64,000 nucleotides of DNA from Schmidtea polychroa (lineage: Eukaryota): contig CM097885.1 in NCBI GenBank assembly GCA_044892525.1, forward strand, positions 214,148,001 to 214,212,000. Direction: 5' to 3'. The notes under the pieces were generated by a model, which was given only the letters and a program-made list of their open reading frames with translations, had not been told where the DNA came from and did no database searches. This document shows positions 19,644 through 44,834 of this stretch, in pieces (position 1 is the stretch's first letter; each line of letters begins with the position of its first letter). Both the position numbers and the translations under genes were made by a program.

Positions 19644-19698
19644 ACTACTATACGAAAATTTTTATTTACAATTATTTACATTGATCATTCATCTTTAA

Positions 19699-20400
19699 TT
19701 ATTGCCGGGTTTTCTTTTTACGGGTTTTCTCGGATGTTCTCATCACTCTCGTTTCTGCTTTTATTACTCGTTTTCTCCATTCGGGTAGTACTTTTAATTG
19801 TTTGTCTTTTTCGTCTAACTGTTGCTTTAGGGTTATTATTTTTTCTTTTAGTGTTTTTATTTCTTGTGTTGCTCTTTCGAGGTTTTTATGGTTCATTATC
19901 TGTAGAAAATCATTTTCCCTTTCCCCGTCTTCTTCGTTGTCTATTTCCTGGTATTTGTTATTCATTCGTCTCATTATCTCACATTCTTTCTGTTTTCGGT
20001 GTAGTTGGAGTTGTAACTCTTTCAGGCTTTCTTGGTGTTTCCGTGCCTCGGTTTTCCAATAGTCACTAATTACTTCGTCGGCCTTTCGACTGGCCCTCTC
20101 CTGCCATAATTCTTCCGCGATCCTTTCCCAATTTCTCCCTCGCTTTCTTTGCTCGTGAAGCCATTCGTTTTCTTCCTCTACTTCTTTCTTTACTCCTTCT
20201 AACAAGATATATTCTCTTTTCAATACTTTGATCATTTTTCGATTATCTCTCCACCTTTCTACTAATCTTTCGTTTTCCTGTCTCTCTTCTTGTAATTCTT
20301 CCTTGATAGTTTTCTTCCTCTCCACTTCATCAACTTCAATTTCTCCCTCTTCTAACTCGATTATAGATGTTATGATGGGTTGTCCGTTTTCAGTGTTCAT
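19699..20400 (-). CDS. 233-aa coiled-coil protein
   Basis: Long ATG ORF, E/K/R-rich heptads, basic C-terminus; co-oriented in the element's 3' cassette. Confidence 0.8.
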   Translation of the reverse strand: MNTENGQPIITSIIELEEGEIEVDEVERKKTIKEELQEERQENERLVERWRDNRKMIKVLKREYILLEGVKKEVEEENEWLHEQRKRGRNWERIAEELWQERASRKADEVISDYWKTEARKHQESLKELQLQLHRKQKECEIMRRMNNKYQEIDNEEDGERENDFLQIMNHKNLERATQEIKTLKEKIITLKQQLDEKDKQLKVLPEWRKRVIKAETRVMRTSEKTRKKKTRQ

Positions 20401-20574: not shown

Positions 20575-21612
20575 TTATACAAAGGTCTCTTCCTGGCCTA
20601 CATATCCCTCATCGCTTTCTACTGACGTTTGTAATTGGAGTGCGATGGGATCAAATGGGATGTAGTACCGGGGAATCTGCGCTCTAAGTTCTTGCACTTC
20701 GTCTCTTAGTGCTCTTGACACGTTAAGTTCCTCGTCCAACAGGTATGTTAGATACCTGGTTTCATCGTCTCTTACCTCTATCTGTTTTTCTAGCTCTTCC
20801 GCTTTTTCGCCGTTTTCCCATTTCTTGATCTCTATCTCCAGATTTTTAAGATTTTCGTTATACATTTTCCTTTCGTTTTCTAACTTTTTGTTTTTCCCCG
20901 CCAGTACCATATTTCTCTGCTCCAGAGCTCCTTGGTATCCGTTGACATCTCGTTCTAGTTCTGCGACCTTATTTACCAGTTCCACGAGTCGTCCTGACTG
21001 TTGAAGTATCAGTTCTTCCATTGCGGCATTCTCGTGCTCCCTTATGGAGATTTTCATGGCTAGATGTCTTTCAAATTCCATGGCTTTGGTCTGCCATGTT
21101 TGGCTTCGGGCCGCAATCTTTCTGAGCCGTTTCAGTTCTTCTCTTATGACCAGATTTTCCTCCCATTTGCCTTGTTCGCTTTCGTATTCTAATCTCATAG
21201 GCAATTCTTTCATTTCTTTTTTCATCTCTTTGTTCTGCCGCTTCCAGTTTCGGGCTTCTGCCAATAGGTGATTCATTTTCCTTCCTTCCTTTTGTTTTTC
21301 TGCTTCTCGTTTTGTGTTTTCGTCCGTCAATCGTTTCCGTGCTTCCTGCACTAACTGTTTTAAATAGTGGCTGTGTGCTTCTTGGCGAGTGTTTTCCAAT
21401 GATGCCCACTTAGAGGCTCTTTTGCATGCTTCTGCTTCGGCTCTTAAATTGTTTATTAACCACTGATATTTGTTATTCTCGTATTCCCTGGCCTCTTCGA
21501 GATGGTTGTGGGTCTGGTTCGTCAATTGTAACATTACTTTGACCCATTTTCCCTTATGGATTTTATTGACTTTGGTTTCGTGGTTTGGGGCTTCAGTTCC
21601 TTCTTGTGTCAT
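20575..21612 (-). CDS. 345-aa coiled-coil protein
   Basis: Long ATG ORF, almost entirely predicted helical coiled coil. Confidence 0.82.
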   Translation of the reverse strand: MTQEGTEAPNHETKVNKIHKGKWVKVMLQLTNQTHNHLEEAREYENNKYQWLINNLRAEAEACKRASKWASLENTRQEAHSHYLKQLVQEARKRLTDENTKREAEKQKEGRKMNHLLAEARNWKRQNKEMKKEMKELPMRLEYESEQGKWEENLVIREELKRLRKIAARSQTWQTKAMEFERHLAMKISIREHENAAMEELILQQSGRLVELVNKVAELERDVNGYQGALEQRNMVLAGKNKKLENERKMYNENLKNLEIEIKKWENGEKAEELEKQIEVRDDETRYLTYLLDEELNVSRALRDEVQELRAQIPRYYIPFDPIALQLQTSVESDEGYVGQEETFV

Positions 21613-21831: not shown

Positions 21832-23220
21832 CTACTCAGTCCTACTCTTCCCATCACGCCTCACCGCTATTTTTATGTATATAGTGTCGTTTCTCGTCAT
21901 GTCTTCTACTTTCCGCTGTAGGATGAAATTTGGTGCTCCAGTTGCTGGTCCTTCTTCTTCCAAGGGCCTTTGGTAACATACGAGGTTTCCCGCTGTATGG
22001 AAACTCTGTTCGTGTATACTTTGATAGTTCATCATTGCAAGGTCTATTTTTGCTTTGAATGGCCATTCTATTAACTCGTCGTATGGCCCTTTGCACATCA
22101 AGAAGAATACTGAGAAATGCGTTCCGTATGCACTTCCATCCCCATTGGGGTATGCTTTCATTTTCATTTTATACCCGTTTTTCCATGAGTAGAATGCTGG
22201 ACTTAGTAATGTTGTATCCTTTCCATTTCTCGCTCTCTGCATCTTCTCTTTTATTCCCGTTATTTTCCATATGTACGGAGCCGTTGGTATTAATTCGTTG
22301 AGGTTTAATTCGCTTACTTTTTGATGTAGTTCTTTCACCATAATATTGCTAGTTTCTACTAGATCTGTCTGTATCTTTGTACTTGTTCTCGCCTCTTCAA
22401 ATGCTTCCTTTTCTTCCAATAGTTCTTTTACCAACGCTTTTAGCGAGACTATTTCTCTTTCTAAGTTTTCGGTTTTCCTTTCGTTTTCCTGTACAACCGT
22501 TGACCATATTTCCGCGTGTGTTGATACGTTTTCTGCTAGGTGTTGGGGTAATTCTCCTCGGTGTAATTGTTTCGGACATCCCCATTTTCCTAGCACACAC
22601 GTTATCTTTTTTCTTTCACACTCTTTTAGATGTTGAGCGAGTTTTATTACTCCGGGTTTATCGCATTTGTTGGGACATTCTCCTCTGAATTCTGCGCACA
22701 CTTTCTCCTCTTGTATGTTGTGATGTTGACTGATTAGTTTCTTCCAGGTGTCGTTTTCTCCGCAATACTCGCATTTCTCTAGTCTTTCTTCGCATCGACT
22801 TTGATGTTCTGCTTCTTCATTGACTTTAATCTCTTCTTGGCAACGTTTGCATTGACTGATTTTATACTCACATTGCTCCGTATGTTGCCTCACTTCCCAT
22901 ATCACTCCTCGCCAATTACATGGGGTGTTTTTACATCCTAGGTTTGCATTCAACATATCTTTTACAGCTGCTTTATCTTCGTTTGTATCTCCCAAACTTG
23001 TTATCATTGTTTCTTTGCATACTGGGCACCATTGTGGTCCCTTCTTTATTATCTCCTCTACACATTCTCTGCACATTCTGCATCCACATCTGGTTTGGTG
23101 AGGTTCTCTTAATAAGCTCTTGCATATTCCACACGTTACATGGTTGTGTATTCGAATTGTGGTGGACTTTCTGATTTGTTCAACAATTTCTCTGAATTCT
23201 TCTCGTTGTCGCTTATCCAT
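21832..23220 (-). CDS. TRAF-family protein (RING, TRAF zinc fingers, coiled coil, MATH), intronless, 462 aa
   Basis: RING CGIC...CGCRMCREC...CPVC; TRAF Zn fingers (C..NTPCNW...H...C); MATH motifs YIWKI, SPAFYS..NGYKMKMKAYPNGDG..GTHFSVF, GPYDELIEWPF. Confidence 0.95.
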   Translation of the reverse strand: MDKRQREEFREIVEQIRKSTTIRIHNHVTCGICKSLLREPHQTRCGCRMCRECVEEIIKKGPQWCPVCKETMITSLGDTNEDKAAVKDMLNANLGCKNTPCNWRGVIWEVRQHTEQCEYKISQCKRCQEEIKVNEEAEHQSRCEERLEKCEYCGENDTWKKLISQHHNIQEEKVCAEFRGECPNKCDKPGVIKLAQHLKECERKKITCVLGKWGCPKQLHRGELPQHLAENVSTHAEIWSTVVQENERKTENLEREIVSLKALVKELLEEKEAFEEARTSTKIQTDLVETSNIMVKELHQKVSELNLNELIPTAPYIWKITGIKEKMQRARNGKDTTLLSPAFYSWKNGYKMKMKAYPNGDGSAYGTHFSVFFLMCKGPYDELIEWPFKAKIDLAMMNYQSIHEQSFHTAGNLVCYQRPLEEEGPATGAPNFILQRKVEDMTRNDTIYIKIAVRRDGKSRTE

Positions 23221-23309
23221 TTCTATAATTATATATATACATATATTCGTTACTGGTACAGTTTCGTATTTTTATTTACATTTATTTACATTGCTATTTT
23301 AGGTTATAT

Positions 23310-23669
23310 TTATTGGCTGGAAGAGTCGGCCTCCTGTCCGCCCTCTTCCCTGTTGGTTAACCATTCTGACCAGTCTTCTATCTCCTCTCGCTCCATCTCT
23401 TCCGCGATTCTTATTAACTCCTCTTCTTGCACCTGGCTGTATCGTGATATTCGGTCTATCTCTCGCTGCATTTGTTCTATTTTCATTCGTTGGTCTTCGA
23501 TTATTCTTACATAATTGAAGCCTTTATTTAAACTTTCGACTAAGCTTCTTTGTACAGCGAGTCCTTGTTCCTGTAAATTCGAAATCACTTGAGTTAACAT
23601 TGCACATTGTTGTTTCCACATCTCCTCGGTTGTTGTACTGTGGTTTACTTCCTCGCCTATTCGCTCCAT
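23310..23669 (-). CDS. ~119-aa coiled-coil acidic protein (ORF track begins at a TTG at 23693; first ATG at 23669)
   Basis: Co-oriented ORF between the polyprotein and TRAF; heptad pattern. Confidence 0.65.
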   Translation of the reverse strand: MERIGEEVNHSTTTEEMWKQQCAMLTQVISNLQEQGLAVQRSLVESLNKGFNYVRIIEDQRMKIEQMQREIDRISRYSQVQEEELIRIAEEMEREEIEDWSEWLTNREEGGQEADSSSQ

Positions 23670-23837
23670 TCTTAATTTATATATACTTTTCAATCCTTAT
23701 CTAATTTTATTTTCATATTAATTATCCCCATCATTATATACTATTGATACCGCGCTTATATAAAAATATAGAATACTGTTATATAAATAAATATTTCCTA
23801 CTTACTTTTTACAATCTATATACAGTCATAATCCTTT

Positions 23838-26800
23838 CTATATACGTGAGCTTGGAGGGCGCTGAGCATTCCAGGCCTCCACCCACTGTTCCTGCTTGAT
23901 ATTACTTGGTCGTTTTACACGATGTTGAAAATTTCTTATTCTGGCCATTTCTAGTTCTCCGTGATGCCGTCTATCTTTGATTATTTTTATTGTCCCCCCC
24001 GTTATGATTAAAAAGGCCCCTGTTATTATTATGCCGCTGATCCACATCATCTGTTTTATGCTTATAATTTCCGCTTTTTCCTTGCTCGTTATTGTTGATA
24101 TTGCTTCTGTGCTTTTTAGATTACCGTCTTTGCCATTTCCTTTCATCATTCCTCGTATTCTTGCTATTTCCTCGTTCATACCTTCCTTTGCCATTTTTTG
24201 TATTTTCTCCATCTCCTCCTCGGATACATAATTGTCTTGATGTTTCTCACTGTTTTTCTTGCGTTTTCCTTGCTCATCTTTTTCATCATCGATTTTTCTT
24301 TTCTTTCCTCTTTTCCCAGGGTATCGTCGACATTCTCTCGCTGTATCTTTTCTCCAGATGCATATTGTGTATTCTTTTGGAGGTTGTTGCTGTATTACAT
24401 ATTGTAGACAGTCTTCACCCGGTCTTAATCTTGCGATGCAGACTTTGTGTTCTTTTCTTGGCTGGAGTTGCGTTATCACTACCTCACCTCCTTTTCCCAG
24501 GTGTACCTCCTTCCCTTTGACTTTCGTTATTCTCTTCCCTTCTCGATTTCGGTATGCTTCTTGTATTCTTACTTCCGTTATTGGTTCTGCATCTTCATTT
24601 TTTAACACTAGTCTCTGATAAGCTCTAGACATACATCTTCCTAATATACACCTTTCTTTTAAATCCCATTCTTCTTTTAGATCCCATTGCTGCTCTTGTA
24701 CTTGTTTTTTCTTTTCTTGTTTTAGTTCTTCCTCTTTGTTGTCCTTATTTTCCGTTTCTTTGGCTTCTTTTATCGTTCTCATTCCTCCCTGGGCTGTTAT
24801 CATTTCCACCATTGTTAGTACGAGTATCATTATCATCATATTTGTCTCCATTTCTTTGTTGGTAAAAAGTAGGCATACCCTCTGTTTTCCACTATTCGTC
24901 TTTTCTTCTTGCTTCATTCGGTTTCTCGGGTTATTTTCCTCTTTTTTCCTACTCGCGTCGTTATTTTCTTGATTATTCTCCTCTGATTTCTCTTTCTCTT
25001 TATTCCCGTTTCGACCTTTTTCATTATTATCGTCGTCTTTATCGTCTTTATCGTCTTTATCTCCCCCGCTATCGTTTAAAATGTCGTCCTCGACATTTAT
25101 ATCATTCAACAATCTGCGGTATGCCGTTAGCACTCTGTTTCTTGCTAATTTTGCTTCGAGTTCGAACTCCTTTCTGCCTGTTGCTACATGTCTCTTTCTA
25201 TTCCATTCTTTCACTAATTCTCTTAATTGTATCCGACGATGTTTCCCGATTCGCTTTTGTTCGTTTAGATTCTGCGTGAATTTGAGATCTTCCCTGTTTA
25301 ATACGATCATTATGATTTTCGGAGTTCCTCCTTTTGTTAGTGTATTTTTAACCATAGCATTTTCTCCGTTTTCGTAGAACTCATTTATGTTTATTGCATA
25401 TTTATTGCTTTGTGGTATTCTCCATGTTAGCAGCAACTTCATGGCTTCTAAGTTCATCCGTATCGTGTTCCATTGGAACTGTGACGTGTTTTTACAGATA
25501 TTTTCTGCCTCAGTTCTTGTAGCATTTTTACAAATGAATCTAATCATTTCCAAGTTTGGTTGTATTGTTGCCCAATCCATGGTAGAATTTCCTTCGTTTG
25601 ATATTTCGTCAAGTCTCGAACCTGATTGATGTAGTATATGTAATGTTTTCGGGTGTATATTTGTTATGGCTGCATACATCATTGCTGTTTCCCCTTGTTC
25701 ATTTTTTGCATTAGATTCTTCTCCGAAGTCTCTAAGGATTCTTATGATGGTTATTGCTCTGTTCTCTTTTGCTGCTAAAATGGCTTGTTGTAATGGTGTT
25801 CTTGAGTCTTTTGTTGGTAAGGTGAATGCTAGTGGTATAAATGTTTTTATTTTTCCTATGTCTAGATTTGTGGTCTGATCTCTTGCGTAGGTGTGTACTG
25901 TCTTGGTTATTTTTGCTAGTATCGCTTCATCGGATAGATCTTGCATTTCTTCAAAGAATACTTCTTTAGCCTTACGTACTACTATCTCTTGGTCGGAGTT
26001 TATTGTCTTTGGTTTACTTGTTGTTGCTATATCGGTTATTGGTTGCTCGACTTGTTCCTCAGACTTTCTTGTTTTTACTTTCTTCATTTTTATCTTTTTC
26101 TTGTTCGAACTGTTAATGCGTTCCTCTGCCGTTAGAACTTGAATAATACTTAGGTAGTTTTCTCGAATGTTGTTCATAGTTTCCATCATATGTAAAACAC
26201 TCACGGTGTCCCAAAATTTTACTTGTACTTTATCGGTAAATTGAGATATAGCTTTTTCGAAGTTGGTAATTCGTTTTCTGATTAGTTGTTCGTCTTTGTG
26301 ATTTGAGAATTTTATGCCTCGTTGTAGTAGTTGATTTGGAATTTCGAATAGGTGATGTCCTCTCATTGCTTCTCTCATCAAGGTATTTTCTCCTTTGGTA
26401 AATGTTTCGTTTATATCCACCATATAATCGTTTTTTATCGGGTTCCTCCATGCAATTAGTATTCCAGTAATTGTTGTTAATTTCTCTTTGATTGCAGTAA
26501 ATAGCCCGTCATACATGTTTCCTATCTCTCTATTATCCTCGTATGATATTAGATCTACTAAGATTATGAAGGCTTCCGTACTTTTCCCTTCGATTGCATG
26601 ATGTAATGCATTTTTCTGGTTGTGATCTTGTGTGGTTATCCTTGACCCAGTTTCAAGTAATGCGATGATAATATCTTTAGCTTTATCCCGATTGGCTGCT
26701 ATCATTAGTGGGGTGTAACCTTGGTTGTTTTCTTGATCTGTCGAAATGTTACAATCGCGAAATGCTTCAATTGTTTCTAATATCTGTTCGTTACTACCCA

Positions 26801-29800
26801 CCTTTAAAAGCTTGTGCAGGGGTGTGTCTCCGTAATGGTCTGTGATCGTGAATAATATAGGCCATTGACTTTTAACTACCCTGAGCAATGGGTGTGTTCT
26901 TTCTCGGTTTGCATAATTTTCGATCATTGTTAGCAGACCTCCCAATATCTCAAAATCTAATCTGTCTTCTGCCCATCCGGGCATTTTAACTTTTACTTCC
27001 TTTATGATTTTCTCGGCTTCTGATGGTTGTAACCCTAATCGATTACCTGTTGGTTCGTTTATTTGCTGTAACATGTTTATTCTATACGTTTGTGATCTTG
27101 TCGTTAGTGTACGTCCTTCTGGCTGACTGGTGGCGGTTTTCGGAATTGGCTTACATCGTGCAACATTTACATATATTGGCCTTGTAAAAGGGTTGTTCAC
27201 TAATCGTACTCTTACATTAGTTTCTCCGACGAATAGAATCTCATACGGCCCTTTACCGTTTCGTTGTAATTTTTTGGTGGTTCCTGGAATTAATTCTGGT
27301 GTTTCAATCATCACCCAATCGCCTGTTTGAAACGTATGCTGTTTGACGTTTTTCTTTCTATCATGTAACTCTTTGTAACTTTCTTGATAAAATTTTATAT
27401 TCAATCCTGCGGTTTCCCAGATTTCCTGCATTCTTTCCTTGAACTTGGTTACATAATCGTCTATTTCCATGTACTGTGATATCGGTGGCTGATATTCTAA
27501 ATCCATTGGCATATTGCATTCTCTGCCGTACATCAACTTGAACGGACTCATCTTTGTGGACGCGTGAATCGACATTCTGTAAGCCATGAGGCATAATTTT
27601 ATATATTCATCCCAGTCTCGTTGATGACGATCGACATAATTTGATAACATTTGAATCAGTGTTCCATTGAATCTTTCTGTCATACCATTAGTTTGTGGAT
27701 GGTACGGTGATGTTCTTAATTTTGCGATCTTGAAGTAGTTGGTGACTTCGCTCATTATTTCGCTCATGAAATTCGTTCCTTGATCCGTCAGTATTTGTTT
27801 CGGCGTTCCATATCGACAACATATTTCCTCTACCAATATTTTTGCGATTGTTCTTGCTTTCTGATCTGCCATTGCGAATGCTTCGGGGAATTTTGTCAAA
27901 TAATCTGTGATTACTAATATATATATATTTCCTCTATCTGATTCTGGTAGTGGACCGACTACGTCCATTGATATCATTGTCATTGGTTCTGCTGGCACTG
28001 GCATTGGCTTTAATGGTGCCTTCCATTTTGTTCCCGTGTTTTTTCTGGTTGCGCAAGTTATGCAATTTTTCACCCATTCCGTTACATCCTCGGTCAATGT
28101 AGGCCAAAAATATTTTTGTTTCATTCGTGCCAACGTCTTTTTAGATGACATATGTCCTCCGAGTCTTCCGTCATGGTATTGTGTTAGTAGATCTTTACGT
28201 CTATTCTCGGGAATGCACATCAGTCTTTTCTCGCCATCCATTATCAATAACCAATCTTTCTCGATAATATATCGATGTCGATGTTTATCCATATGCTCCT
28301 TCAATTTTTGATCTTTCTCATATACCTCTGCTTTCCCTGTTTTCACATATTCAATGATTTGCTTCAACTCTGTATCCTCTTGTTGGTCTTTCCGTAATTG
28401 GCAAAAATCTAAATCTTCTGCTACCATCAGACATATTCGTTGCATTTCGTGATCTACTAAATCTGGAAAGATAAATCTGGACATACAATCCGCATTGGCA
28501 TTCGCTCTTCCCGCTTTGAATTTTATGAACGGTGAATATTCTTGTAACTGCATTGCCCATCGCATCAATCTACTTGAAGCTTCTTTGTGTTGACCAAGCC
28601 ATACTAATGGTTGATGATCCGTGGTGATACATATTTCGTGTCCCCATAACAAATATCGAAAATGTTTAATTGCTTGTATGATTGCTAACGCTTCTCTCTC
28701 GGTTACGGAATAGTTTTTCTCGTGCTTTTTAAACGTTCTACTGTAGTATCCAATCACTCTTTCTTTTCCTTCTTCATCCAGTTGTCCTAATATTGCTCCG
28801 GCTGCATATCCACTTGCATCTGTTGCTAATAGGAACGGTTTCTTGAAATCAGGGTGTACTAGTATTGGGGCTTCAATTAATTTATCTCGCAATGTCTCAA
28901 ACGCTTTTTGTTGTTCTGCACCCCAAATAAATGAAATATCCTTTTTCACTAATTCCTGTATTGGTTTCGCAATACCTGCATAGTTTTTGATGAATTTTCG
29001 ATAATATCCGCATAATCCGAGAAATTCTTGAACTTGGGTGACAGTTTTTGGTGCTGGACATGTTTTTATTTTTTCTATGTTCCTTGGATCTGGTTCTTTG
29101 CCTTTTGCTGACACTATGTGTCCTAAGAACGTAACCTTTTCTTTTGCCCAATCACATTTGGATGGTTTAAGTTTCAGTTTCCATTGTCGTAATCGAACGA
29201 ACACATTTCTGATATCTTCCAAATGTTGTTCGAATGTTGCTGAATATATTAATAAATCATCAATATATACCATACACTGCTTGATCCCGTGTGTGACAAA
29301 ATTCATACATCTCTGGAATGATGCTGGGGCGTTGGTCAGTCCGAACGGCATTTTCCTGAATTGGTATAGATCTCGGCCCAATGTGAATGCTGTTTTCTCT
29401 TTGTCTTCCTCCTTGACTTTGATCTGCCAATATCCGCTTTTCAGATCTAAAGATGTAAAATATGCGGCCCCCTGTAACATAAGTAACATCTCATTGATGT
29501 CTGGTAACGGGTATGTGTCTCTTTTTGTTACTGCATTTAATTTCCGATAATCGATACAGAATCTCTGAGTACCGTCTTTTTTCTTCACCATGACTACTGG
29601 AAATTGCCATGGTGAGCAACTTGGTTCGATCACTTGTGCATCTAGCATTTTTTGTACTTCTGCTTCGGCTATCTCTTTTTGCTTCTCTGCTAGTTTGTAT
29701 GGGCGTAGTGCGATTGGAGTTTCGTCTATTAATGGTATTGCGTGTAATGTAACATCGCATGCTCCCAAATCTAAATCCGAAATTGCGAATATATCTTTAT

Positions 29801-32800
29801 ATTCTATCAATAATTGTTGAAGTCTCTCCTTCTCTTTTTCCGTTAGCAAGGTGCTGTCAATTATCCATAATTCGTCAGCTTTCGTTGTTTCGTTGATGAT
29901 TTTTGGTAATTCGATGTCTATCATGGGTGTCAATCTACCCAATCTTTCATTTTCATATATGATCTTGTCTTCTTCCTCAAAATTTGTGATGTTAATTGGT
30001 ATTTCCCCGTCTTCATTTATTGTTATTATTTCTCTTGCTAATGGTAATTCTCGTCGTTTTTCGAATGATTTGCTTGGCTCAAAAATGACTTCTCCTTCCA
30101 TTCCTGCATCCACTTTTATTTGACATATCATCTGTGATTTTGCGGGTACAATTATTTTCTCCGGGCATCTAATTATTGCGTTCATCTTGCATATTCTACC
30201 CATTTTGTCTTTTAGACACATTGTTGTTAAATCGATTACTACTTCCTTAAATAATTCCGGCATTAAATCCGTTCCGATTATACATGGTTCACTCAGTTTG
30301 GGTATCACCGCTAGATACGTTTCAATTTCGTTATCCTGATATCGTAACGTAGTCCACCATCTTCCTACTACGTCTACGGTTTCTTTACTGCATGCAATAA
30401 TATGGATAGTTGTTTGTTCGATATCCTTCCAACATTTACTGGGTATTTGGTTTATTGCTATTGCTGATACGTTTGCTCCGGTATCTATCATGGCGCTTGT
30501 CTCTTTCCCGTTGATTTGGATCATGACTGTTACTGCCGCACCTCCTGGTGAACTCATCACTGCTATCGTTCTTACGTCGTCCGCTTGGTCTACACTTTTC
30601 GTTCTTCGGGTCGGCATATAGTTCATTCCTGGTTGACTTGGTAACTGTGGATACATATTTTGTGTCATGGTCAAAGCTGTTTGTTGTCCAACGATATCTG
30701 GTGGTATGTAACTTCCGTTGGCTATCCAGGTATTTGTTTTTTCTTTCTCCCAATATGGTGCTGTTTCTATTGGCTTTTCATTCGGGTTTCTACTTGGATA
30801 TGGGTATTTGTCATTCCCGTTGTCGTCATCATCACTATCGCTGCTGTTTGATCGATTCCTAAATCTGTCTAAGAATTTTGGTTTGTTCTTTTTCAGTTGC
30901 GTCCTTGTTGCTTCATCATACATCGTTTTCCGAAATCGTCTACCGACTTCCTCGTCAGTTCCTTTTATTTTTGTCAGTATTTTGATCAATCGTTTTATTC
31001 TGTGTATGTCTTTAGAATGACCGTGCAACACCATTGTTTTCGCCAAAAATGGTAGAAAGCCTACTATCAATTTCCAATTTACCTTCTTTTCTCTCTTATA
31101 GATATCAAAACACGCTAACATTTGAGTTAATATTACTCTGACGATCTGAATAATTAAGATGATTCCCAATATTCCTGCCATCATTTGACCGAACACTAGA
31201 AATCTTCCCCACATTGCTTTCATCATGTTTGACGTGGCTTGTTGAAAATGATCAGGTGACAATAATAGTTCGTAATTGGGGCCTGACTGGAAATTCGTTC
31301 CCCCAGTTATGGTAACCATATTCGATAGAATGGATTCCCGTCTTGCTGGGAATAATACGTTTAATCGTGCCGTTTCTAAATCCTCCGGTGAGTACATACC
31401 TGCTTTTGACACATCAATTGGTTTGAAATCTTGTTCTGTTGCGAGTTCTATTAGTCCAAACTTTTTAGGTTCTTGTACTTCGGTTTTTACCGGTAACATT
31501 ATCCATTTCCCATCGGGTTTTTCATATAACGGTCCGTATGCATTTGAACAGTTAAAGGTGTTCGGGTAAAATCCAATTGGGTTCATTATTCGAGTGACGG
31601 GTTGAACGAATCTGTTTCGCCCTTTGTAACTAATTTCTAACTCGTTTGCACATTTCCCTGGTGGAATCGTGGGCTTTCTTGGCAGTCGCGCAAATGTCTT
31701 GGTACATGCATATGTATACATTACCTCTCCCACCATTCTACCAAAATGTCCATCCGGTAACGGGAGTGATGGCATTGTGTTATCTGGGTGTGTTATTGCG
31801 ATGGCTAATTTTGTTTTTAGTATCTCTTTATTCAATGAACAGTCATTTTGTATAAGATCGTAATACACTTTTTGCATTGTCGTTTGTCCTCGGTGAAATA
31901 AAAAGTCCATTTTGTTATTGGCGTACAGGTACAATTTTACGTCCTCTGTTGCTACCTTTCCCACTGCTCGGTCTATTACTTGCCTGGACATGTAGATACC
32001 TGCGTAGTTCGTCCGGTATACTATGCTGTCACATTTGGTGGTCTCTTTTTCTCTAATGAATCTCATGCCGATATCTGGGTCATCTGTAATTAATGCCGTT
32101 GGTGTTTTTTGGGTTGTGAGTCTCTTTTCTTTGGGGGATGGCGGAACTGGTTTCCCATTTCGCATCCTTACGTTTCCATTCTCTTCATCGTCATCCTCGT
32201 TTTCGTAAATTTCTCCTTTTACTTCATTGAATAGAGCACTTTTTAACAATTGGAGTCGGCATTTTTGGGTGTTAGCTTCATATATTATAGTCGAAATTCC
32301 CGTTCTACACACGTTTTCCGTAGCTCTGCATGCTGGGTTGGTTTTCATTTGATAGTTGTTCGCGTCGAATTGTGCTTCGTATTCCTTCAACTCCACTGTG
32401 TAGGACTCAATTACTACTACTCCCGATATCACCTCTCCTCTGATCGTATATGTGCCTCCGTTACATGATCCATCAGTTGATTTTACTCGTCCAGCGACAT
32501 AGATACTTTCTGTCTTGATCATTCCGCTTTGTCCGTGTATTGTTACTCCATCCCTGATTCTCATTGCTCCGGTTCTAAAAAGCTCTTTACAGTCTTCCCG
32601 TTGTATAGGTACTATTTCTTTATCTAATCCCGGTAATATAAGGGTTGAATATGAGTATTGTCCACAGTAATATGCCAACACTTTCTTTGATACTACGCAT
32701 TCTCTAGCTTGCGTTCTAATGAAATCTGATTCTTGGTATACGTGATAGGAGACTTTCTTCTTTACTATATCTAATTTATTCGGAGACGCCTGTCTACATT

Positions 32801-35800
32801 CCTCTATATCTCTCAGGGAGTATCTTTCTCCTATTATCGAATTGTCACAGTCGTAAATAGTAAATCCCGCGGCTCCACTGGTGCAGAGCATCCATATCAT
32901 CATGGTCATCATTAGTGAATTAATCGACGCTTTTCTGCTGGCTGGGTCTTTCAATGGCAATTCCCATTCTAGCTCATGTAGTAACTTCTTCAACCGAATT
33001 TGCATTGATCTCTCTTGCTCGTTTTTTCGTGGCGCTTGTATGAGTCTTTTCCACCCACCGGCGCGGATGATATGTGGTTCGATTGTATTTTCAATGATTG
33101 TGACGGTCATTTCTACATGATTTGCGAATTGTTTGTTAGGTATTTTCCTTGCTGCTAATCCCATCAAATTGTACATTAGATACGTTAATACTACTAAATG
33201 ATGTTCGTCGTCGTTTGCGTTTAAAGTTAATTGTTCAATTACTCTTCTTGTCTCTTCCCAATCGGTTTTAGTGGTTTTTGTCTTCTCTTTGATTAATTTC
33301 GGAATTATTCCGGATATTGTATTCCATAGTTGTCTGGCGTCTACGCTTGCTACTTTTCGTTGCCATAACCGTCGCAATTGTGGGTTCGTTATTATTAGCA
33401 TATCTTTTACTAGCTCTCGTATCCATTTTTCGCCTCTTTCGATAGTTGGCTGGGCCTCTTTTAGATCCCACACTATTTTATCCAGTTTCTCTAATCTGAC
33501 TTGTCCTTGTTCTTGTTTCAGTTGTTCTCTAGTTTTAAATTCCGGTTTTTCTCCTTGCTTCTTGGGTCTCCCTTTTGCCCGTTTTTCCATCATTGTTCCG
33601 GCTTCCCTTGTATTTTCATAATTCGGGTTTCTCTCGTTATCCGTTCTTGGCAATGAGCTATCGTTATTTCTTAGCCATTCGTTCCATTCGTCTATTATTT
33701 TGTCCGTTTGACCTTCTGGTGTTGCTTTCGTTGGTCCTTTCTGTCGTTGGAATTGTTCGTCGGTTTCGGTTTCTGTTGTATTATCGATAATCTCCTCGAT
33801 ACTCAGCTTATTTGGCTGCTGATAGCTAGTTGACGGTTGGCTTGTTGTCCATATTTCGGCTCCTGTCGGCCATCTTACCAGAATTGGTGATCTTTCTCCA
33901 GCTCCTTCATCGCTGTCTTCCAATATAATTTCCTCGATTTCCTCGGTTTCATTCGTTTTACTTGCCACTTTGTTAGGGCTTGGTGTACTCAAGCTACCTT
34001 TCGTAGGTTTACTGGATGTGTTCTTCCTTTTAATCGGTTTTCCCAATGTTTCTACCATTGTCAATACATTGATCTCCCCCAATCTCATGGGTGTTATTCC
34101 GACATCTGCATTATCATCCAACGATTTTCCGAATAGTTGTAGGTGAAACGGAGTTTCGTATGCTAATTTCTTTTTTAACTCTCTGATCTTTGTTGTTGGA
34201 TGTACTTCTGTATCCTCAATGCTTTTGTCGGGATACTTGACTCGGATACGATACCTTTCCTGGGTATCTTGTGCCCATTCTTGGTTTCTCCATTTCCTAA
34301 TAATTTGTTCTAGCTGTTCTGGGTACCATTCGTTATATTGTCTGTATTCCTCAATCGCTTTCGCCATTTCTCTTAGATTGTGGATATTCTCTGATGTCTT
34401 TAGGATGATGTTAGCCAATGCTATTACTTGACGTTTTTGATTTTTTGTTCCCGTTGCTAAGATATCACCTAATTGTTTATATCTTTCCTTCTCTTCTCGT
34501 TCTCGAGCTTCCATCGCTTCTTCGCTATCCATATCGGCATATTCGCGTTCTTTCTTTCTCATCGCATGAATATGTCTGGTTTCCGTTTCACTTTCTGATG
34601 TAACATCCGTTTCGCTTCCGTCGTCCGATGTCGATTCTATTTCGTCCTCTTCGTATTTTGGAGGTTCATCTTCCTCTTCTTCTGATTCACTTTCTATCTC
34701 ACCAATGTCTGTTTCCACGAAAATCCCTTTCCTGATTTTCCATTCTTTGTTTTCCGCATTCCACGTCCTTTCCCATGGGGTTCGTCTGCAGGATCTCACA
34801 CTTAGTTTCTTTATTTTTCCTTGAAGCTCTTTTTCTTTTAACCACTGTTGATGAATTTCAATTATCTCTACTGATTTTTGATATAGCGTTTTCATCCTGT
34901 CTCGTATTTCTTTCTGGTATGTTATATCTCTTGTTCGGAATTCGTCCATGGGCAATATTCTGATGATTTGATGATTATCCCACATTCCCATTTCGCTTAG
35001 CGAGGTGTCGTCTTCGGCCCGTAATATTATTTTATCGTACATCATGACTACGTCATCTATCATCCCGTCGCTACTCTCGCTTCGTACTTTTTCCGTTATC
35101 TCTTGGTTTATCTTGGTTACTAAGTCATCTACCGTACTCTGATTACTCATCTTTATTCGTCGTTTCTCCTCGTTTGGTAACCATATGGTTATTTCTAATT
35201 TCTGCGGTTGCGTTTCTTTCAACCTGCCATATTTGTGGATCAAATTTATGGTTCTCCAATCGCTCATCCTGAGCAATTCTGTATCTCGTAATCGGCTCAT
35301 TAGCTCATGCATGTCTGGAGTTCGTCTTGCTATGAGTAAATCCCAGTTATCTTCGACTTGTTCTTGAATTTGTTTGATTAATTTATCTAGATTTCGTCGC
35401 AAGGTGCATTGTTTTATTTGTTCCAGCTTCAGCTTGATGTTAAAATCGTATTCGGCCTTGGCGTCTTTAGCCCATTCGTGAATATTTGCTGGTTGTTTCT
35501 CTTTATACAATTTCAATATTTGAGTTTCTCCTGGCCAGATCAATGCATCTATTAGGTGCATGTCTGGTTTGATTTGTTCTCCTTGATATTGATACAGATA
35601 TTCTTTCTTTCTCGAGCTGCCCAAATGTTCTCTTATCCAATCGAAAAGGTCGTCTGTGACTGCATTTTTTATCCATATTCTCTCGAGTCCTTTACTCGTT
35701 CCGATTTTTATTACATAGCGTGTTGTCTCCGCTTGTTTCATTTTTTCCATATACTTCTTTATTATCACTTTTTCCTCGTTTGGTATTAGGTCTTTTTCGT

Positions 35801-38273
35801 TTCTTTCTAGTTTCATTATCTTTTGTATGAAGCGTCGGTATGGTATGATGTCAATGAATTCCTGGTTTCTTACCACCACTGGAAGTATTTCCTTTACTTG
35901 TTTTATCGCTTCTTCTCTTTCTTTTCTCAATTTCATTTCGATATTCTCGTCTTCGCTTTCGCTTGTCACGTCGCTTTCTCTTTCATCTTCATCTGCTCCA
36001 ATCTTTTCTCTTAGTTGGTCGATATTTTCATTTAACTGTAACATTTCTCCACCAAGGCTACTCACATAATCCTCATCGTCATCTGTTGACAACACCTTCT
36101 TTGTTGTCCTCATCATATTAATTCGTAAATTTCTCATTCTTGGTACTTTCTTTAACTTGTTGTTCTCGAGTATCGTTAGTTCCTCTGAGTCTAATTCTCG
36201 TATCATATTATGCTTTAGATGATTAATCTGTTTTTCATTTTCGTTATTTTCTGCTTCTGCTTCTGTTTTTGTTTGCTCATTTTCTCTTTCGATTTTATCT
36301 TTTATCTTTTTCCAAAATATTTTCTGAATTCTCTGATTTCCTTTTAGTGGTGTTGTTGAATTTTCCTTTTTTGCTGCTGTAATTGTTTCTTTCGGTTTCT
36401 CTGGTTCGCTCATAGGTACAACTCTTGGATTTTTACCGTAATTGTAACAATATTGCTCCTTTATCTCCTTTACCATCCTCATCATATTTATTCGTAGTGG
36501 TTGTTCTTGTCGCTGCTGAATTCGCTCTCTTTTTATCCTTTCTTCTTCAGCTTGTAGTCTTTGCCATTCTTGTGCATGTTGTTGCACTTCATAATTGTTA
36601 AGATTCTCGGTGCTTCTCATCATGCGTATATTCTGGGTTGGTTGTGGTACTTGCTCTTGTCTCGGTCTCATCATTTGTTGCATCATCTGCTTCATTTGTG
36701 AAATTTCTTGCATCACATTCATTTGCTTTCCCTCACTAGGATTACTTTGTCGTTGCGGATTTGGTGCATAGTTATTATTTCGCTGTGGTGGTCGTTGCTG
36801 TTGGCTCCTTTCTCGACAGTCTCTTGAGATATGACCTAGTTGCCCGCAGTTAAAACATCCTCTTGATTGGCATATATTTTCCGTGTGTCCTCGTCGTCCA
36901 CACCTATTGCAATTTGCGTTTCGGTAACAATCTCTATCCCAATGTCCTGGTTTACCGCATGTTCGGCATTGTTTGTTATCGTTTATATTTCGTCGATTAT
37001 TAAAGTTGTTCCCATTGTTTGAGTTGTTGCGTTCACTGTTATTCCCGTTTGATCGTCCTTGTGGTGGTTTGAAAATTTGATGCGCACCTGGTATAAACTG
37101 ATTCATCTTTGGTTCATGATTATTGTTATCTCCATTTTCCGTTTTCACCGCTGCTGTTGCGATTCTTCCCTCCTCTTGCATGACGTTCATTTGTGCTGGG
37201 AGGTGTAGTTCGCATCTTGTGGCCCAATCTATGGCTTCTTCTAGTGTTTTACACATTTGACATCCCACCGAGGCCCTTACCTCTTCTCGGCGTAGTCCTT
37301 CTATGAAGTAACCCATTAAATTTTCCTCCGGCAAGTTTCCGTTCATGGCCTTCTTTGCCAATCTTCGCAATTCACTTGCGTATAACGTAATTGACTCGTT
37401 TGCTCTTTGTTTTCTACTTGCCAGTTCACCTAACGCTTGATTTATTGGTTTGCTGGCTCCGAATGTTTTTCTCAAAAATGTTTTGATGTTTTCCCAATTG
37501 TCTAATTTCGTATTTCTTTCTTTTGCTTCCAGATATACTTCGAGTGCGCTATCGCACAAAAACAGAGGCATTCGTTTACTAATTGCTTCGGGTGTCCATC
37601 CACACACATCGATATAGACTTCAAAGTTGGTTATGAACGTTGCCAACTTGTTCGCATTCCCGTTGAATGGTTCGCCTCTAAATTTTTCCTTATACTCGTC
37701 AGTTTTTACCACATTCATCTTAATTGGTTCTTGAAACTCTATTATTTCTTTTAAATTTTCCAGCGATGTAGCTAAGCTATGGACGGATAATTCTTCTGTT
37801 GACCCGGTTAGGTTGTTGGTTATATCGGATAGACTTTCTCTACTTCTAGATCGGCTGGGCGTATGTCCGGCTGTGGGGTTTTCTTGATCGTATATCGGTG
37901 TTTTGTGGGGTCTTTTTGCTCCTTGTGATATTCCTCTCTGCTGCCTAAATGATCGTCCTCTTTTGAGTTGATCTAATTCGTCTCCTGAAAATAATACGTC
38001 TCCTGGCTTACTTGAAGATCTAAGGTTGGGTTTATCCGTGATTTTCCTTTTACTCTTTTCTGTCTTTTCACGTGGATTTTCTACGGTTAGCGTCTGCTGA
38101 ATTGGTCGAGTTCGGTTTTGATATTGTCTTCCTTTGTGCGGGTTCTGAATTGCTTTTCCTGGGTTGTTTGTATATTCTCTGGATTCCTCTTGAGCTGGTT
38201 CTGAATTGACTTGGTTGGATGGATGTCTACAATGAAAATATGATATCGTGTTGCCTTTGCTTACACGAATCAA
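23838..38273 (-). CDS. Single Gag-Ubl-Bcl2-Env-PR-RT-RH-IN-Ank-TM polyprotein (4,811 open codons; first in-frame ATG at 37718)
   Basis: 14.4-kb frame with no stop; recognisable CCHC, DTG, YIDD, TDAS, HHCC, D-D-E, GPY and ankyrin motifs. Confidence 0.97.
   Translation of the reverse strand: [4811 protein letters not shown]
25540..26845 (-). other. Two clusters of ankyrin repeats (within polyprotein)
   Basis: [67 protein letters not shown]. Confidence 0.88.
27130..28420 (-). other. Integrase (HHCC, DDE, GPY/F) (within polyprotein)
   Basis: YHDGRLGGH...CITC; MDVVGPL...TDQGTNF...ERFNGTL; GPYEI. Confidence 0.97.
28480..29720 (-). other. Reverse transcriptase and RNase H (within polyprotein)
   Basis: RPYKL, [76 protein letters not shown]. 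Confidence 0.98.
30190..30555 (-). other. Aspartic protease (within polyprotein)
   Basis: [23 protein letters not shown] ... CIIGTDLM. Confidence 0.95.
31020..32918 (-). other. Env-like glycoprotein (chuvirus G / gB-type class III fusogen): signal peptide, ~550-aa ectodomain, TM (within polyprotein)
   Basis: Hydrophobic [18 protein letters not shown] then FTIYDC; 14 ectodomain Cys; [53 protein letters not shown]. Confidence 0.8.
33040..33440 (-). other. Bcl-2-like domain (within polyprotein)
   Basis: [16 protein letters not shown] resembles BH2 (HLEPWIQENGGWDTFV) with Bcl-2-like helix spacing upstream; BH1 NWGR is not retained. Confidence 0.55.
34050..35725 (-). other. Three ubiquitin-like domains (~35500-35725, ~34945-35205, ~34050-34260; within polyprotein)
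   Basis: Best copy [46 protein letters not shown] aligns by eye to ubiquitin [44 protein letters not shown]. Confidence 0.6.
36815..37718 (-). other. Gag capsid-like domain plus three CCHC zinc knuckles (within polyprotein)
   Basis: [16 protein letters not shown]...Q..[18 protein letters not shown]...FIEGL; [42 protein letters not shown]. Confidence 0.92.
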
Positions 38274-38939
38274 TCATTCCTTTTTGCCACATTCAAGCAC
38301 AGACACCGTTTTAGGGCCTCTGTTATATTTTTCTTCATTTCCCCTCATACACTTCTTCGCAGAATATAATTACCCATCAACCCATATTTTTCGTCGATTT
38401 TAAATTATCTATTTGGGGTAGTAACAATTATCTATATAGTCGTATAAATTATCTATAGTTAGCATTTATAATATCGATAGGTCGTTGTCAGTTACTGCCT
38501 ATTACCTCCCATATTTTCTTAATCCTTTTACGCGGTTCCGCTATTTTACTTAATCTTTCATCTCTGTTTCCCCTTATTTGGTTCTACTCTGTAACCAAAA
38601 CAAAATTCGTTTAACCGGTTTAAACCAAAAAAATTCTGTAGAACTTTGTCTACTTGTCTGGGATCCCTTTTTTAATTAATTAATCACCTTCCTCTTTTAC
38701 TCATCACTTATTCTTTATTTTCATTATCTCTTTAATTCATTTTCCTTTTCCGTTTCTCTTTCCCACTGAAAAAAATTTCATTATTACTTCTCACGAGCTC
38801 GTTTAATCCTTTCTAAATTCAAATACCATATTTCAAACTCACTTTGCTTCTAGCTAGCTTTAATATTCCATCTCACTAGTAATTTAAATGTTATCAACTT
38901 GTAGCTTGAATGCTATCTCACTATTACTTTAGGCCTTTA

Positions 38940-39615
38940 CGACTGGCTGGCACTTTTCAACAGCTCAATCTTCTTCTCCTGACCGGTTGGACTATTCAAC
39001 AACTCGATCTTACGACTGGCTGGCACTATTCAACAGCTCAATCTTCTTCATCTCCGAACTGGCTGGACTTTTCACAGCTCAGTTTTAATTTTTCCTGACC
39101 GGCTGGACTTTTCAACAGCTCGGCCTTAATATCTCCGACTGGCTGGACTTTTCACAGCTCAGTTTTAATTTTTCCTGACCGGCTGGACTTTTCAACAGCT
39201 CGGCCTTAATATCTCCGACTGGCTGGACTTTTCACAGCTCAGTTTTAATTTTTCCTGACCGGCTGGACTTTTCAACAGCTCGGCCTTAATATCTCCGACT
39301 GGCTGGACTTTTCACAGCTCAGTTTTAATTTTTCCTGACCGGCTGGACTTTTCAACAGCTCGGCCTTAATATCTCCGACTGGCTGGACTTTTCACAGCTC
39401 AGTTTTAATTTTTCCTGACCGGCTGGACTTTTCAACAGCTCGGCCTTAATATCTCCGACTGGCTGGACTTTTCACAGCTCAGTTTTAATTTTTCCTGACC
39501 GGCTGGACTTTTCAACAGCTCGGCCTTAATATCTCCGACTGGCTGGACTTTTCACAGCTCAGTTTTAATTTTTCCTGACCGGCTGGACTTTTCAACAGCT
39601 CGGCCTTAATATCTC
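38940..39615. repeat. Tandem array in the element leader: about 7 perfect 80-bp units (two alternating 40-bp subunits, 39061-39615) plus 3 degenerate subunits
   Basis: GGCTGGACTTTTCACAGCTCAGTTTTAATTTTTCCTGACC alternating with GGCTGGACTTTTCAACAGCTCGGCCTTAATATCTCCGACT. Confidence 0.97.
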
Positions 39616-40197
39616 TAAACTCTGCATGCTTCCGTTCCTTTTTGTCTTTATTCTATACTGTCATCTTCCTATTTTTACTTTTATTTGTCGACTTAATCTG
39701 TACCGCTTTGGAAGGTTTCCCCTTTCCCCCCTTGCTTAAAACGCAAAACGATCGCATTGATCCATTTCTGCATTGGTATGGTGATCAGCCATACCGCAGA
39801 AACTTTTCAATATTCGCGATGGTACCTCGCCTTACATCTCTTACTCGGGGTGATCGGTTATCCCCTCCCGAACGGTTTTTCAATTATCGTACCTCCCGAA
39901 GGTGGCTCGGTTTATTCCCCCTTTAATCTTATGTTGGGACTAGCTCCACTTTATGTACTCGATTTAAATTTTAAAATACCCTTTCTTCATGGTGAAAATT
40001 ATGATACAACAGATCAAATTATAGCTTCGCAAAATGAAATAAACACACCAAAATGATTTATTGATTATTCAGTCCATGCTACATATGATATATGATACCC
40101 TTATTAAAATATTAATGAATCAAATCAAAAAAAATTAAAATATTTTAGTTTAATTGTTCAACCATCCAATTTCTCTCACCGAGCGACGATCACGTAC

Positions 40198-40677
40198 CTA
40201 ACTGAAGTAGATTGTGTGCTTCTCTTTTATTACACATGTGCACATAGAACACCGGATTAAACTGGCGGCGCATTCGTCACAATGGCTAAGGTGCCCACAA
40301 GGTAGAATCAGAATTTTGACAGGTCGCATCTTGCAAATGTTACAAGTTCTCAAGGCCGCTGCTTTCTCTACTATTGATGTTCGTATCCGCTGAGACAGAG
40401 TTTTGACTCGTTCGCGTATCCTCACATATTCGATGTTCAGCGCTGGGTCGTCGAGACGTTGCTGAAACCATTGGTAATGAATCGACAAGTCGGTATCGGT
40501 ATTCGTTGATCCTAATCTGTCGGTTAGAAAGTTTTGTTTGGATATCAGCGGTGCGTCGTGGCTTTGTTGTTCTAGCAGTTCTATTTGTTTCAGTTTTTCC
40601 CTTAATGTTTTTATTGAATCATTTTCTATTTCGACGAACCGGCTTAGCTGTTGTAGATGTTGTCTAGCGTCTGACAT
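40198..40677 (-). CDS. 159-aa coiled-coil plus IAP-type C-terminal RING protein (no BIR)
   Basis: CNICKMRPVKILILPCGHLSHCDECAASLIRCSMCTCVIKEKHTIYFS*; RING at the extreme C-terminus ending in an aromatic tail as in IAPs. Confidence 0.88.
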   Translation of the reverse strand: MSDARQHLQQLSRFVEIENDSIKTLREKLKQIELLEQQSHDAPLISKQNFLTDRLGSTNTDTDLSIHYQWFQQRLDDPALNIEYVRIRERVKTLSQRIRTSIVEKAAALRTCNICKMRPVKILILPCGHLSHCDECAASLIRCSMCTCVIKEKHTIYFS

Positions 40678-41129: not shown

Positions 41130-41147
41130 ATCCCGGCTGAGCCCCCA
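41130..41147 (-). promoter_or_regulatory. Primer-binding site, tRNA-Pro type, 7 nt inside the 5' LTR end
   Basis: Minus strand TGGGGGCTCAGCCGGGAT; 16/18 identical to the MLV tRNA-Pro PBS TGGGGGCTCGTCCGGGAT. Confidence 0.88.
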
Positions 41148-41694
41148 AAAATCGTGTTGGCGTATGTGGGGGAAAAAAAAATATATAGGCATGATTATCA
41201 TACACATCGGGTGTCATTATTCTACTCAGATCATTCCCTCACGCACTCCAAATGATCATTCGCATATTCCCACATATGAGCCCGTGGTGATGTTCCACGT
41301 TGGTACTGCTCACACGGGTTGGGAAGAGTTAGCAGGTGAGCCCCTGCCTTAGGACTACTCCTAACCCTTTCTCGGTTCGGGTTCTACGGTGCCATAGAAG
41401 GTCTTACCCATTCTTTACGCATCATTCGGTCCGACCCTGGTCCAAAGGGTACGACATTTAAGTTTCTACTATATTTTCGTGATCCTTCTCTCATGCAATT
41501 CAACCGTAGCAAGTCATACATACAATTTACACAATCAAAGAAAAATCGAACAGTTATATTAGAACGGAACATCAAACTACATTCAATATTGTTTAAATAA
41601 ATACAAAAAAACATTAAAGATTAGTCACGAGATAACGTCGCTTCTTCGAGTTCGTTAGTAATAGCAGGGGAATCGAGACCCGAGAGAGAATTGG

Positions 41695-42459
41695 CTACGA
41701 GAATGCTTCTCCTTCTGCGAGCATCTCGTCGATGTCAACGGGCAACCGGCGGTCTTCGAGGAATTTAATACTGCCGGCCGGAACTACCCGGAATACTTCC
41801 TTTGTAGGAATGGAATGGGTAACTGTAATTTCCTTGATAGTTGCTTTGGCCACAGATAACGATGCTTCGAGCGCGGCCATGGCATTTCTACGCTTCTGAT
41901 TTTTTTCAGAACGCGTCAGCCGCTTACGCTTTCGATGGGGAAATGTAGCTTCTGCTGGGGACTGAAGGAGGTGTGGCACGAGTACTGGAGCCAAGATAGG
42001 GTCCGATGAACCGCCAGCCATAGGTCGATGGCCCGAAAGAACTGGGGCGGGAATTGGCGGCATTTGTGGGCCATGCCCTTTACAACTGGATGTTGATGAG
42101 GTTTCAGCTAATTTGTGGTGCATTGGGAACACGTTAGTCCCATCTTGTATCGGGTACTCGCGAACTCGCTTCGCTAGTTCTGATTCGGAATACACCTTGT
42201 GCAGTGCCTCTGATTGGGCCTTTATGGTTAGCCTCTGGCACCTGCTTTCTTCCAGGAGACTGTCACGGCAGTGCTCCAAACGCAGAATCTTGCTCTTCTC
42301 CTCCTTCATTTGTGGTGGGGAGAACCACGTTCCCTCATAGAGGTCAATTCTCTTCTTCAATTCCCCGATGTACAAGTGGAGCTGTGCGATATCGGCATTT
42401 TTATCAGCACAGGAGAAGCAAGGTCTGAGGGTTTTCCCGGAACTGGTTGAGGTATTCAT
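41695..42459 (-). CDS. LTR-encoded 254-aa protein, 5' LTR copy
   Basis: Same protein as 15133..15897; one synonymous substitution noticed (15196 A vs 41758 G). Confidence 0.75.
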   Translation of the reverse strand: MNTSTSSGKTLRPCFSCADKNADIAQLHLYIGELKKRIDLYEGTWFSPPQMKEEKSKILRLEHCRDSLLEESRCQRLTIKAQSEALHKVYSESELAKRVREYPIQDGTNVFPMHHKLAETSSTSSCKGHGPQMPPIPAPVLSGHRPMAGGSSDPILAPVLVPHLLQSPAEATFPHRKRKRLTRSEKNQKRRNAMAALEASLSVAKATIKEITVTHSIPTKEVFRVVPAGSIKFLEDRRLPVDIDEMLAEGEAFS

Positions 42460-44811: not shown

Positions 44812-44834
44812 ATATATAGTATTTTTCGTCCAAT
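44812..44834 (-). promoter_or_regulatory. Putative LTR core promoter (ATTGG/CCAAT box plus TATA); copy at 18250..18272
   Basis: CCTGATTGGACGAAAAATACTATATAT; same blocks conserved in the diverged LTR at 57422..57458 (CCTGATTGGA...GACGAAAATACTATAAAT). Confidence 0.6.

Follow-up and report, generated by a model that had tools for sequence, protein, structure and literature searches.

The Burro elements, also described as GYPSM1, are giant gypsy-like long terminal repeat (LTR) retroelements of dugesiid planarians (Jurka 2007; Grohme 2018; via PMC6431247). Their described cargo includes MATH/TRAF, BIR, ankyrin, BCL2-like, Ubi2/SUMO-like, and dUTPase-like domains and an in-frame env, and it was proposed in 2019 that Burro interferes with host apoptosis and ubiquitination (PMC6431247). 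A passage of PMC13465017 citing Lee et al. (2026, Dev Cell) states that the Burro1 protein B-IAP guards stem cells against caspase-mediated death. Here, a window of 64,000 nucleotides from Schmidtea polychroa (GenBank assembly GCA_044892525.1, contig CM097885.1, positions 214,148,001 to 214,212,000 of the forward strand) was analyzed, and positions below are those of the window. It contains an env-bearing gypsy LTR element of the Burro type, which is 30,746 bp long (14593-45338), lies on the minus strand, and holds all five classes of cargo domain, TRAF, IAP-type RING, Bcl-2-like, ankyrin, and ubiquitin-like (Ubl), all on that strand, as a preliminary description had claimed. The element is a BIR-less member of the known Burro family, without two defining features of Burro1. 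Death- and ubiquitin-related cargo on a giant planarian retroelement is already published (PMC6431247), so a claim of novelty is not supported; what remains useful is the occurrence of families with different cargo sets in one genome.

The likeness to Burro includes the size (~30 kb; the published criterion is >30 kb with long LTRs), a single polyprotein of ~5,000 amino acids (aa), and the gypsy order of protease (PR), reverse transcriptase (RT), RNase H, and integrase. The polyprotein runs from Gag, with three CCHC knuckles, through the cargo to Env, which lies between the Bcl-2 domain and PR, and then through RT, RNase H, and integrase to the ankyrins and a membrane-type tail. Ubl and Bcl-2-like domains before env, TRAF/MATH cargo, tandem repeats, and accessory open reading frames (ORFs) are also common to both. 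Along the element, the RING ORF is followed by an 80-bp repeat array, the polyprotein, and ORFs of 119, 462 (TRAF), 345, 233, and 211 aa. However, Burro1 as described has a MATH domain inside its 4,873-aa ORF1 and a BIR domain, and the window family has neither; its TRAF is present only as a separate downstream ORF, and it has two ankyrin arrays. The Burro review gives one Ubl, whereas the window family and a BIR-bearing family in the same genome have three helix-plus-Ubl units. The window family is set apart from Burro1 by the published description and may equal Burro-2, -3, or -4, and BIR-less families may already figure in the figures or supplements of Lee 2026 or Grohme 2018. The two LTRs (4,184 bp each, 14593-18776 and 41155-45338) have TG..CA ends and a 4-bp target site duplication (TTGG) and differ at one base, which indicates that the insertion is recent.

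The TRAF ORF is complete, with RING, zinc fingers, coiled coil, and MATH in TRAF-family order. Its MATH and RING domains match Pfam with E values of 2.8e-25 and 9.5e-5, respectively, and its best PDB matches are TRAF3 and TRAF2 (E value, 3e-28), which confirms a TRAF on the element. It resembles cellular TRAF2 and TRAF3 in these matches and in the whole domain order; unlike them, it is intronless and borne by a mobile element, and its best database relatives are unnamed and only 23 to 29% identical. Excerpts of PMC7586133 and PMC13563047 report that planarian cell survival depends on host TRAFs and that planarian TRAF induction is TBK1-dependent, respectively.

The 5' RING ORF ends in a C3HC4 RING with an aromatic-bearing tail, as IAP proteins do, and the top 9 of its 13 PDB matches are RINGs of cIAP1, cIAP2, and XIAP (E values, 1e-9 to 2e-8). 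Neither Pfam nor comparison with B-IAP revealed a BIR domain in this ORF or in the element. At the position of CPICR in cIAP1, the ORF has CSMCT, so that the Pro and Arg of the IAP motif CPxCR are gone, whereas B-IAP retains both. The Arg of this stretch helps E2 activation. The zinc ligands are retained in the listed copies, except for one Cys-to-Tyr change in locus L026. B-IAP matches the window over the RING alone. The window RING ORF shares with B-IAP an IAP-class RING on a Burro element, but it is another gene, located upstream of gag and BIR-less; the BIR-bearing family also has its own BIR-less 5' RING ORF (25% identical to that of the window), so the window RING is not B-IAP. The IAP-type RING first described thus stands as a RING class, but reading it as an apoptosis inhibitor is not supported, given the missing BIR and the difference from B-IAP.

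The Bcl-2-like domain (polyprotein aa 1411 to 1575) alone falls under the Pfam cut-off (E value, 0.023 to 0.075). A profile of eight rows from three Burro-like families places Bcl-xL first (E value, 0.003), and its first 48 rows belong to the Bcl-2 family. Six of the eight profile rows match Pfam Bcl-2, the best being from a third, shorter family (E value, 1.2e-6). A structural model of the domain (predicted local distance difference test [pLDDT], 55) was searched with Foldseek, and every row listed within the top 50 ranks is a Bcl-2-family chain; the PDB rows have probabilities of 0.93 to 1.00, TM scores of 0.40 to 0.59, and E values of 0.03 or worse. Among the viral folds of BFVD, ranks 1 to 14 are named or recognizable Bcl-2-type proteins (probability, 0.82 to 1.00; E value, 0.03 to 0.5). 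The fold is therefore borne out, less strongly than that of TRAF. The nearest viral folds include herpesvirus v-Bcl-2/BALF1, adenovirus E1B-19K, and poxvirus proteins, to which the domain is 8 to 15% identical and from which it differs in lying inside a retroelement polyprotein and in the loss of BH1. The position of NWGR, the BH1 motif of BH3-binding members, is occupied by DDEH in the window family, DQNR in the BIR-bearing family, and NRDK in the third family; the BH2-like GGW is retained in the window. Some poxvirus Bcl-2-fold proteins block innate signaling and not death. Other multicopy Bcl-2-like sequences occur outside Burro (L062 to L065 and further places), many with one TAG inside the match.

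Each of the three Ubl units is preceded by a helical unit of unassigned kind. The single Ubl units are under the Pfam cut-offs, with no Ubl match for unit 1 and E values of 0.19 and 0.013 for units 2 and 3, but the matches of a joint 13-row profile are headed by polyubiquitin, ISG15, and single ubiquitin variants (first 10 rows, E values of 2.4e-7 to 1.2e-4). None of the three ends in di-Gly, which indicates that they are not conjugatable. In protein databases, the Ubl/Bcl-2 region matched nothing at an E value of 0.001 (5,529 and 5,892 candidates), and the alignments are therefore shallow. The helical units were considered as death-fold or BAG domains; a profile search returned nothing credible and a fold search returned generic helical bundles (Z up to 8.4), so that this assignment found no support in these searches. 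Between Ubl2 and the third helical unit (34479-34943), the window has a shorter, Trp-bearing, acidic stretch where the BIR-bearing family has an in-frame MATH (L031:6300-7270); it is perhaps what is left of a domain since lost. Genome-wide, numerous scattered units of ubiquitin or di-ubiquitin, in frames of up to ~1,400 codons, were also seen and probably belong to another mobile family.

The ankyrin repeats (Ank_2; E value, 7.9e-16) form two arrays whose PDB matches are generic ankyrin proteins; the 60 best of 160 matches include no IkB, Bcl-3, or p105 chain. The repeats themselves are thus real, but the IkB likeness attributed to them was not recovered among these matches. A death domain suspected by eye before array 1 had no Pfam match. 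Planarians have no clear NF-kB homologue but seven divergent Rel homology domain (RHD) factors, according to an excerpt of PMC13563047; an RHD search of the host genome gave zero matches, with the controls equally unmatched. Generic ankyrins and the reported lack of a clear NF-kB homologue leave the supposed NF-kB link without footing.

At least three related families occur in the genome: one with Bcl-2 only, one with the set without BIR, and one with the set including BIR. A BIR search yielded 150 scored places among 309 candidates, mostly frames of ~392 codons. Two BIR-bearing elements (L031 to L033 and L036 to L038) have the layout and cargo order of the window element, with RT 88 to 89% and cargo 25 to 51% identical. 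They carry a MATH inside the polyprotein, between Ubl2 and the third unit (L031/L036), and a BIR-plus-RING ORF of ~392 aa directly after TRAF, and this family fits the published Burro1. B-IAP is absent between TRAF and the 345-aa ORF in the window and in all 10 further copies spanning this junction. The region between PR and RT, where Burro is described with a dUTPase-like region, is conserved (66% identical to the BIR-bearing family) and has no Pfam match. The third, shorter family (L052 to L053; G000:C1:259092500-259112499) has Gag, Bcl-2, Env, and Pol in a frame of ~3,050 codons, and its Bcl-2 domain, just before env, is better conserved. Ubl, ankyrin, and adjacent full TRAF matches were not found in the stretches of this family that were fetched. 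L074/L075, considered as a chimera of the window and BIR-bearing families, proved to be two neighboring elements.

The window family is present in many intact copies. All 150 scored places of the Bcl-2 region (784 candidates) match at 93% or more, and internal stops are lacking from TRAF in 84 of 92 scored copies (1,866 candidates) and from the RING ORF in 131 of 150 (3,591 candidates). Ratios of nonsynonymous to synonymous divergence (dN/dS) were calculated pairwise by the Nei-Gojobori method against a sister subfamily, with 13 and 21 loci given and dS about 1 to 2 or saturated; 9 of 20 loci (L011 to L016, L021, L025, and L028) were left out because they held little or partial polyprotein. 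Against six sister-subfamily copies, dN/dS was 0.02 to 0.05 for Ubl1, 0.01 to 0.03 for Ubl2 (4 of 6 computable), 0.05 to 0.07 for Ubl3, and 0.02 to 0.03 for Bcl-2 (5 of 6 computable), compared with 0.02 to 0.03 for gag and 0.03 for env. Values against divergent copies were 0.02 to 0.07 for the ankyrin arrays and 0.07 to 0.12 for the TRAF MATH. Against the sister subfamily, TRAF gave 0.05 to 0.12 where computable; the RING ORF gave 0.03 to 0.11 against four closer copies and was saturated against the rest. The cargo is under purifying selection, which for the Ubl, Bcl-2, and ankyrin domains is as tight as that on gag and env, indicating that the cargo matters to the element. Inside single copies (e.g., L023), dS jumps between neighboring domains, which suggests recombination among subfamilies.

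The reading favored here, with a probability of about 0.6, is that the TRAF, BIR-less RING, Bcl-2-fold, Ubl, and ankyrin cargo damps host ubiquitin-dependent stress and death signaling in the way of virus-style accessory proteins. Host manipulation by these domains is likely. A motif resembling the protease sites of the element recurs at domain borders, with matching places in the BIR-bearing family, and the cargo is therefore predicted to be released as separate proteins. The element protease would cut the polyprotein at this motif into pieces including helix-Ubl-helix-Ubl (aa ~535 to 1050), helix-Ubl to Bcl-2 (aa ~1050 to 1600), and ankyrin (aa ~3550 to 4280), and TRAF and RING would be made from their own ORFs. 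Because it is complete, with all domains present, TRAF would be the most likely active signaling part, acting on host TRAF/kinase signaling. The Bcl-2 fold without BH1 would more probably be a binding scaffold or decoy than a classic BH3 sponge, and the RING an adaptor or dimer partner rather than a caspase inhibitor. The target of the cargo is likely not the canonical NF-kB/IkB module.

Several points weigh against this reading. Confidence in the Bcl-2 model is modest, and none of its matches reaches an E value of 0.001. The three Ubl domains first described are supported by the joint profile but not by structure, since a 1002-aa model (pLDDT, 39) left the beta-grasp unconfirmed and gave only the strand-strand-helix order in units 1 and 2. 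Across the polyprotein, 11 occurrences of the border motif were counted, compared with a mean of 1.06 and a maximum of 5 in 1,000 shuffles, a test that overstates the motif because the pattern was drawn by eye from the same protein. Purifying selection indicates importance to the element only, and the polyprotein domains could be structural. In addition, an excerpt of PMC8532177 places BURRO1 under PIWI control, reports that BURRO1 RNA interference did not improve the piwi-knockdown phenotype, and describes BURRO1 as intestinally enriched, so that Burro is also expressed outside stem cells. The idea that the element manipulates its host and sustains stem cells, put forward in the preliminary description, is accordingly upheld in part: selection on the cargo, the 2019 proposal (PMC6431247), and the B-IAP role in Burro1 (PMC13465017, in excerpt) favor it, but the B-IAP result does not carry over to the window family, from which B-IAP is absent.

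It is conceivable, if rather doubtful, that the cargo instead serves the cycle of the element itself (particle assembly, membrane budding, turnover of its own proteins, or recruitment of ubiquitin machinery from the host) and hardly affects the fate of the host cell. The Ubl, Bcl-2, and ankyrin domains share a reading frame with Gag, Env, and Pol and are equally constrained, the Ubl units lack the end needed for conjugation, and the Bcl-2 domain adjoins the Env signal in three families, all of which agree with such a role. However, a structural role hardly accounts for a full-length TRAF and an IAP-type RING that have ORFs of their own, and Ubl, ankyrin, and an adjacent full TRAF look dispensable for replication since they are unmatched in the stretches covered of the third env-bearing family. 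The separate ORFs also diverge much faster than Pol (identities of ~43% for RING and ~70% for TRAF versus 98% for RT). Host-facing proteins often diverge fast. It is unlikely that the cargo is a coordinated anti-apoptotic and anti-NF-kB set (IAP, Bcl-2, and IkB mimic) sustaining the stem cells that carry it, in the manner reported for Burro1. The Bcl-2 fold with viral Bcl-2 proteins as its nearest viral folds, the IAP-class RING, and the B-IAP precedent (PMC13465017, in excerpt) speak for it, but the element has no BIR, BH1 is lost, the RING lacks the Pro and Arg that B-IAP keeps, the ankyrins are not IkB-specific, and planarians lack a clear NF-kB homologue according to the excerpt of PMC13563047. 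That the cargo is captured host sequence hitchhiking without function is very improbable and largely refuted by dN/dS of ~0.01 to 0.12 with synonymous sites near saturation and by RING zinc ligands retained in all listed copies but L026; a cargo order that is constant across families also speaks against it.

Expression of the accessory ORFs may follow a common pattern. A YAG lies within seven bases of the ATG in 6 of 7 short ORFs, compared with 14 of 51 non-coding and 36 of 169 internal ATGs. By eye, YAG before ATG is also present in the sister subfamily and the BIR-bearing family, often after UGUA and AAUAAA-like words. This pattern is a hint of subgenomic messages made by splicing or trans-splicing. 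Contigs of runs guessed to be RNA, which cover the region in part, show neither a splice joint nor a leader at the accessory ORFs. The spacers of the accessory ORFs (19644-19698, 20401-20574, 21613-21831, 23221-23309, and 23670-23837) have in common TGTAAATA and TATAAGC words, with AG before the next ATG.

The features of the element are listed in Table 1. The 254-aa ORF of the LTRs (41695-42459 and 15133-15897) has no Pfam match and has relatives of 35 to 52% identity in other LTRs of the genome. The polyprotein frame is open for ~185 codons upstream of the first ATG (37719-38273), and other copies likewise have an open frame before it. The polyprotein tail (23841-24872) is predicted to be a second membrane protein, of type I; in the BIR-bearing family, a similarly arranged piece is longer. 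A plain polypurine tract was not seen before the 3' LTR (18777-18830), where the minus strand has GC-rich self-complementary stretches. Genes of the primer tRNA, tRNA-Pro(TGG), form a long array with a 475-bp period at L095 to L098 (G000:C1:130.9 Mb), and 1,577 pattern matches were counted genome-wide. Outside the element, the window contains a 224-bp near-perfect palindrome (58823-59046), a 117-bp direct repeat with copies 1.87 kb apart (49659-49775 and 51530-51647), and two related microsatellite tracts of 9-bp period, 7 kb apart (3487-3701 and 10627-10835).

Table 1. Features of the Burro-type element, in window positions
Feature	Position	Strand	Remarks
3' LTR	14593..18776	-	4,184 bp, TG..CA; second copy of 254-aa ORF at 15133-15897
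211-aa accessory ORF	19008..19643	-	hydrophobic stretches; no confident Pfam match
233-aa accessory ORF	19699..20400	-	no confident Pfam match
345-aa accessory ORF	20575..21612	-	no Pfam match; directly after TRAF, where sister family has B-IAP
TRAF ORF, 462 aa, intronless	21832..23220	-	RING, zinc fingers, coiled coil, MATH
119-aa helical accessory ORF	23310..23669	-	common to BIR-bearing family
Polyprotein, 4,626 aa from first ATG	23838..37718	-	open frame of 4,811 codons stop to stop
Polyprotein C-terminal piece	23841..24872	-	signal-like stretch, Cys-bearing region, transmembrane segment; no known family
Ankyrin array 2	25329..25898	-	BIR-bearing family shows one array
Ankyrin array 1	26319..26843	-	
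Integrase zinc-binding and core domains	27696..28214	-	
Reverse transcriptase and RNase H	28536..29588	-	
Aspartic protease	30252..30527	-	
In-frame Env	31095..32867	-	Monjiviricetes-type fusion glycoprotein, E value 6e-72; signal-like stretch before, transmembrane segment at end
Bcl-2-fold domain	32994..33488	-	BH2-like GGW retained; DDEH in place of BH1 NWGR
Helical unit and Ubl3 (34044-34259)	34044..34478	-	no C-terminal di-Gly
Helical unit and Ubl1 (35484-35723), helical unit and Ubl2 (34944-35204)	34944..35933	-	no C-terminal di-Gly
Gag with three CCHC knuckles	36789..37718	-	
80-bp tandem repeat array in leader	38937..39615	undefined	
RING ORF, 5' accessory, 159 aa	40198..40677	-	helical N terminus and C-terminal IAP-type RING, BIR-less
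Primer-binding site	41130..41147	-	complementary to 3' end of host tRNA-Pro(TGG)
5' LTR	41155..45338	-	4,184 bp, one mismatch with 3' LTR; 254-aa ORF at 41695-42459

A Burro lineage recently amplified to well over a hundred copies without B-IAP could be a natural control for the reported transposon-host mutualism, although this is put forward tentatively. Such a lineage might free-ride on the B-IAP of the sister family, or it might reach the same end through a Bcl-2 fold that lacks a groove, a RING that serves as a decoy, and a full TRAF that works on TRAF/TBK1 signaling; the accessory ORFs would be expressed from a polycistronic cassette through splicing or trans-splicing. Counts of planarian immune genes may also be inflated by the large number of intact copies of TRAF, RING, and BIR. 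B-IAP is the only Burro cargo component reported as tested, and comparing the three families would indicate whether Burro elements protect stem cells as a rule or one family gained this ability late, and what TRAF, the Bcl-2 fold, and Ubl add.

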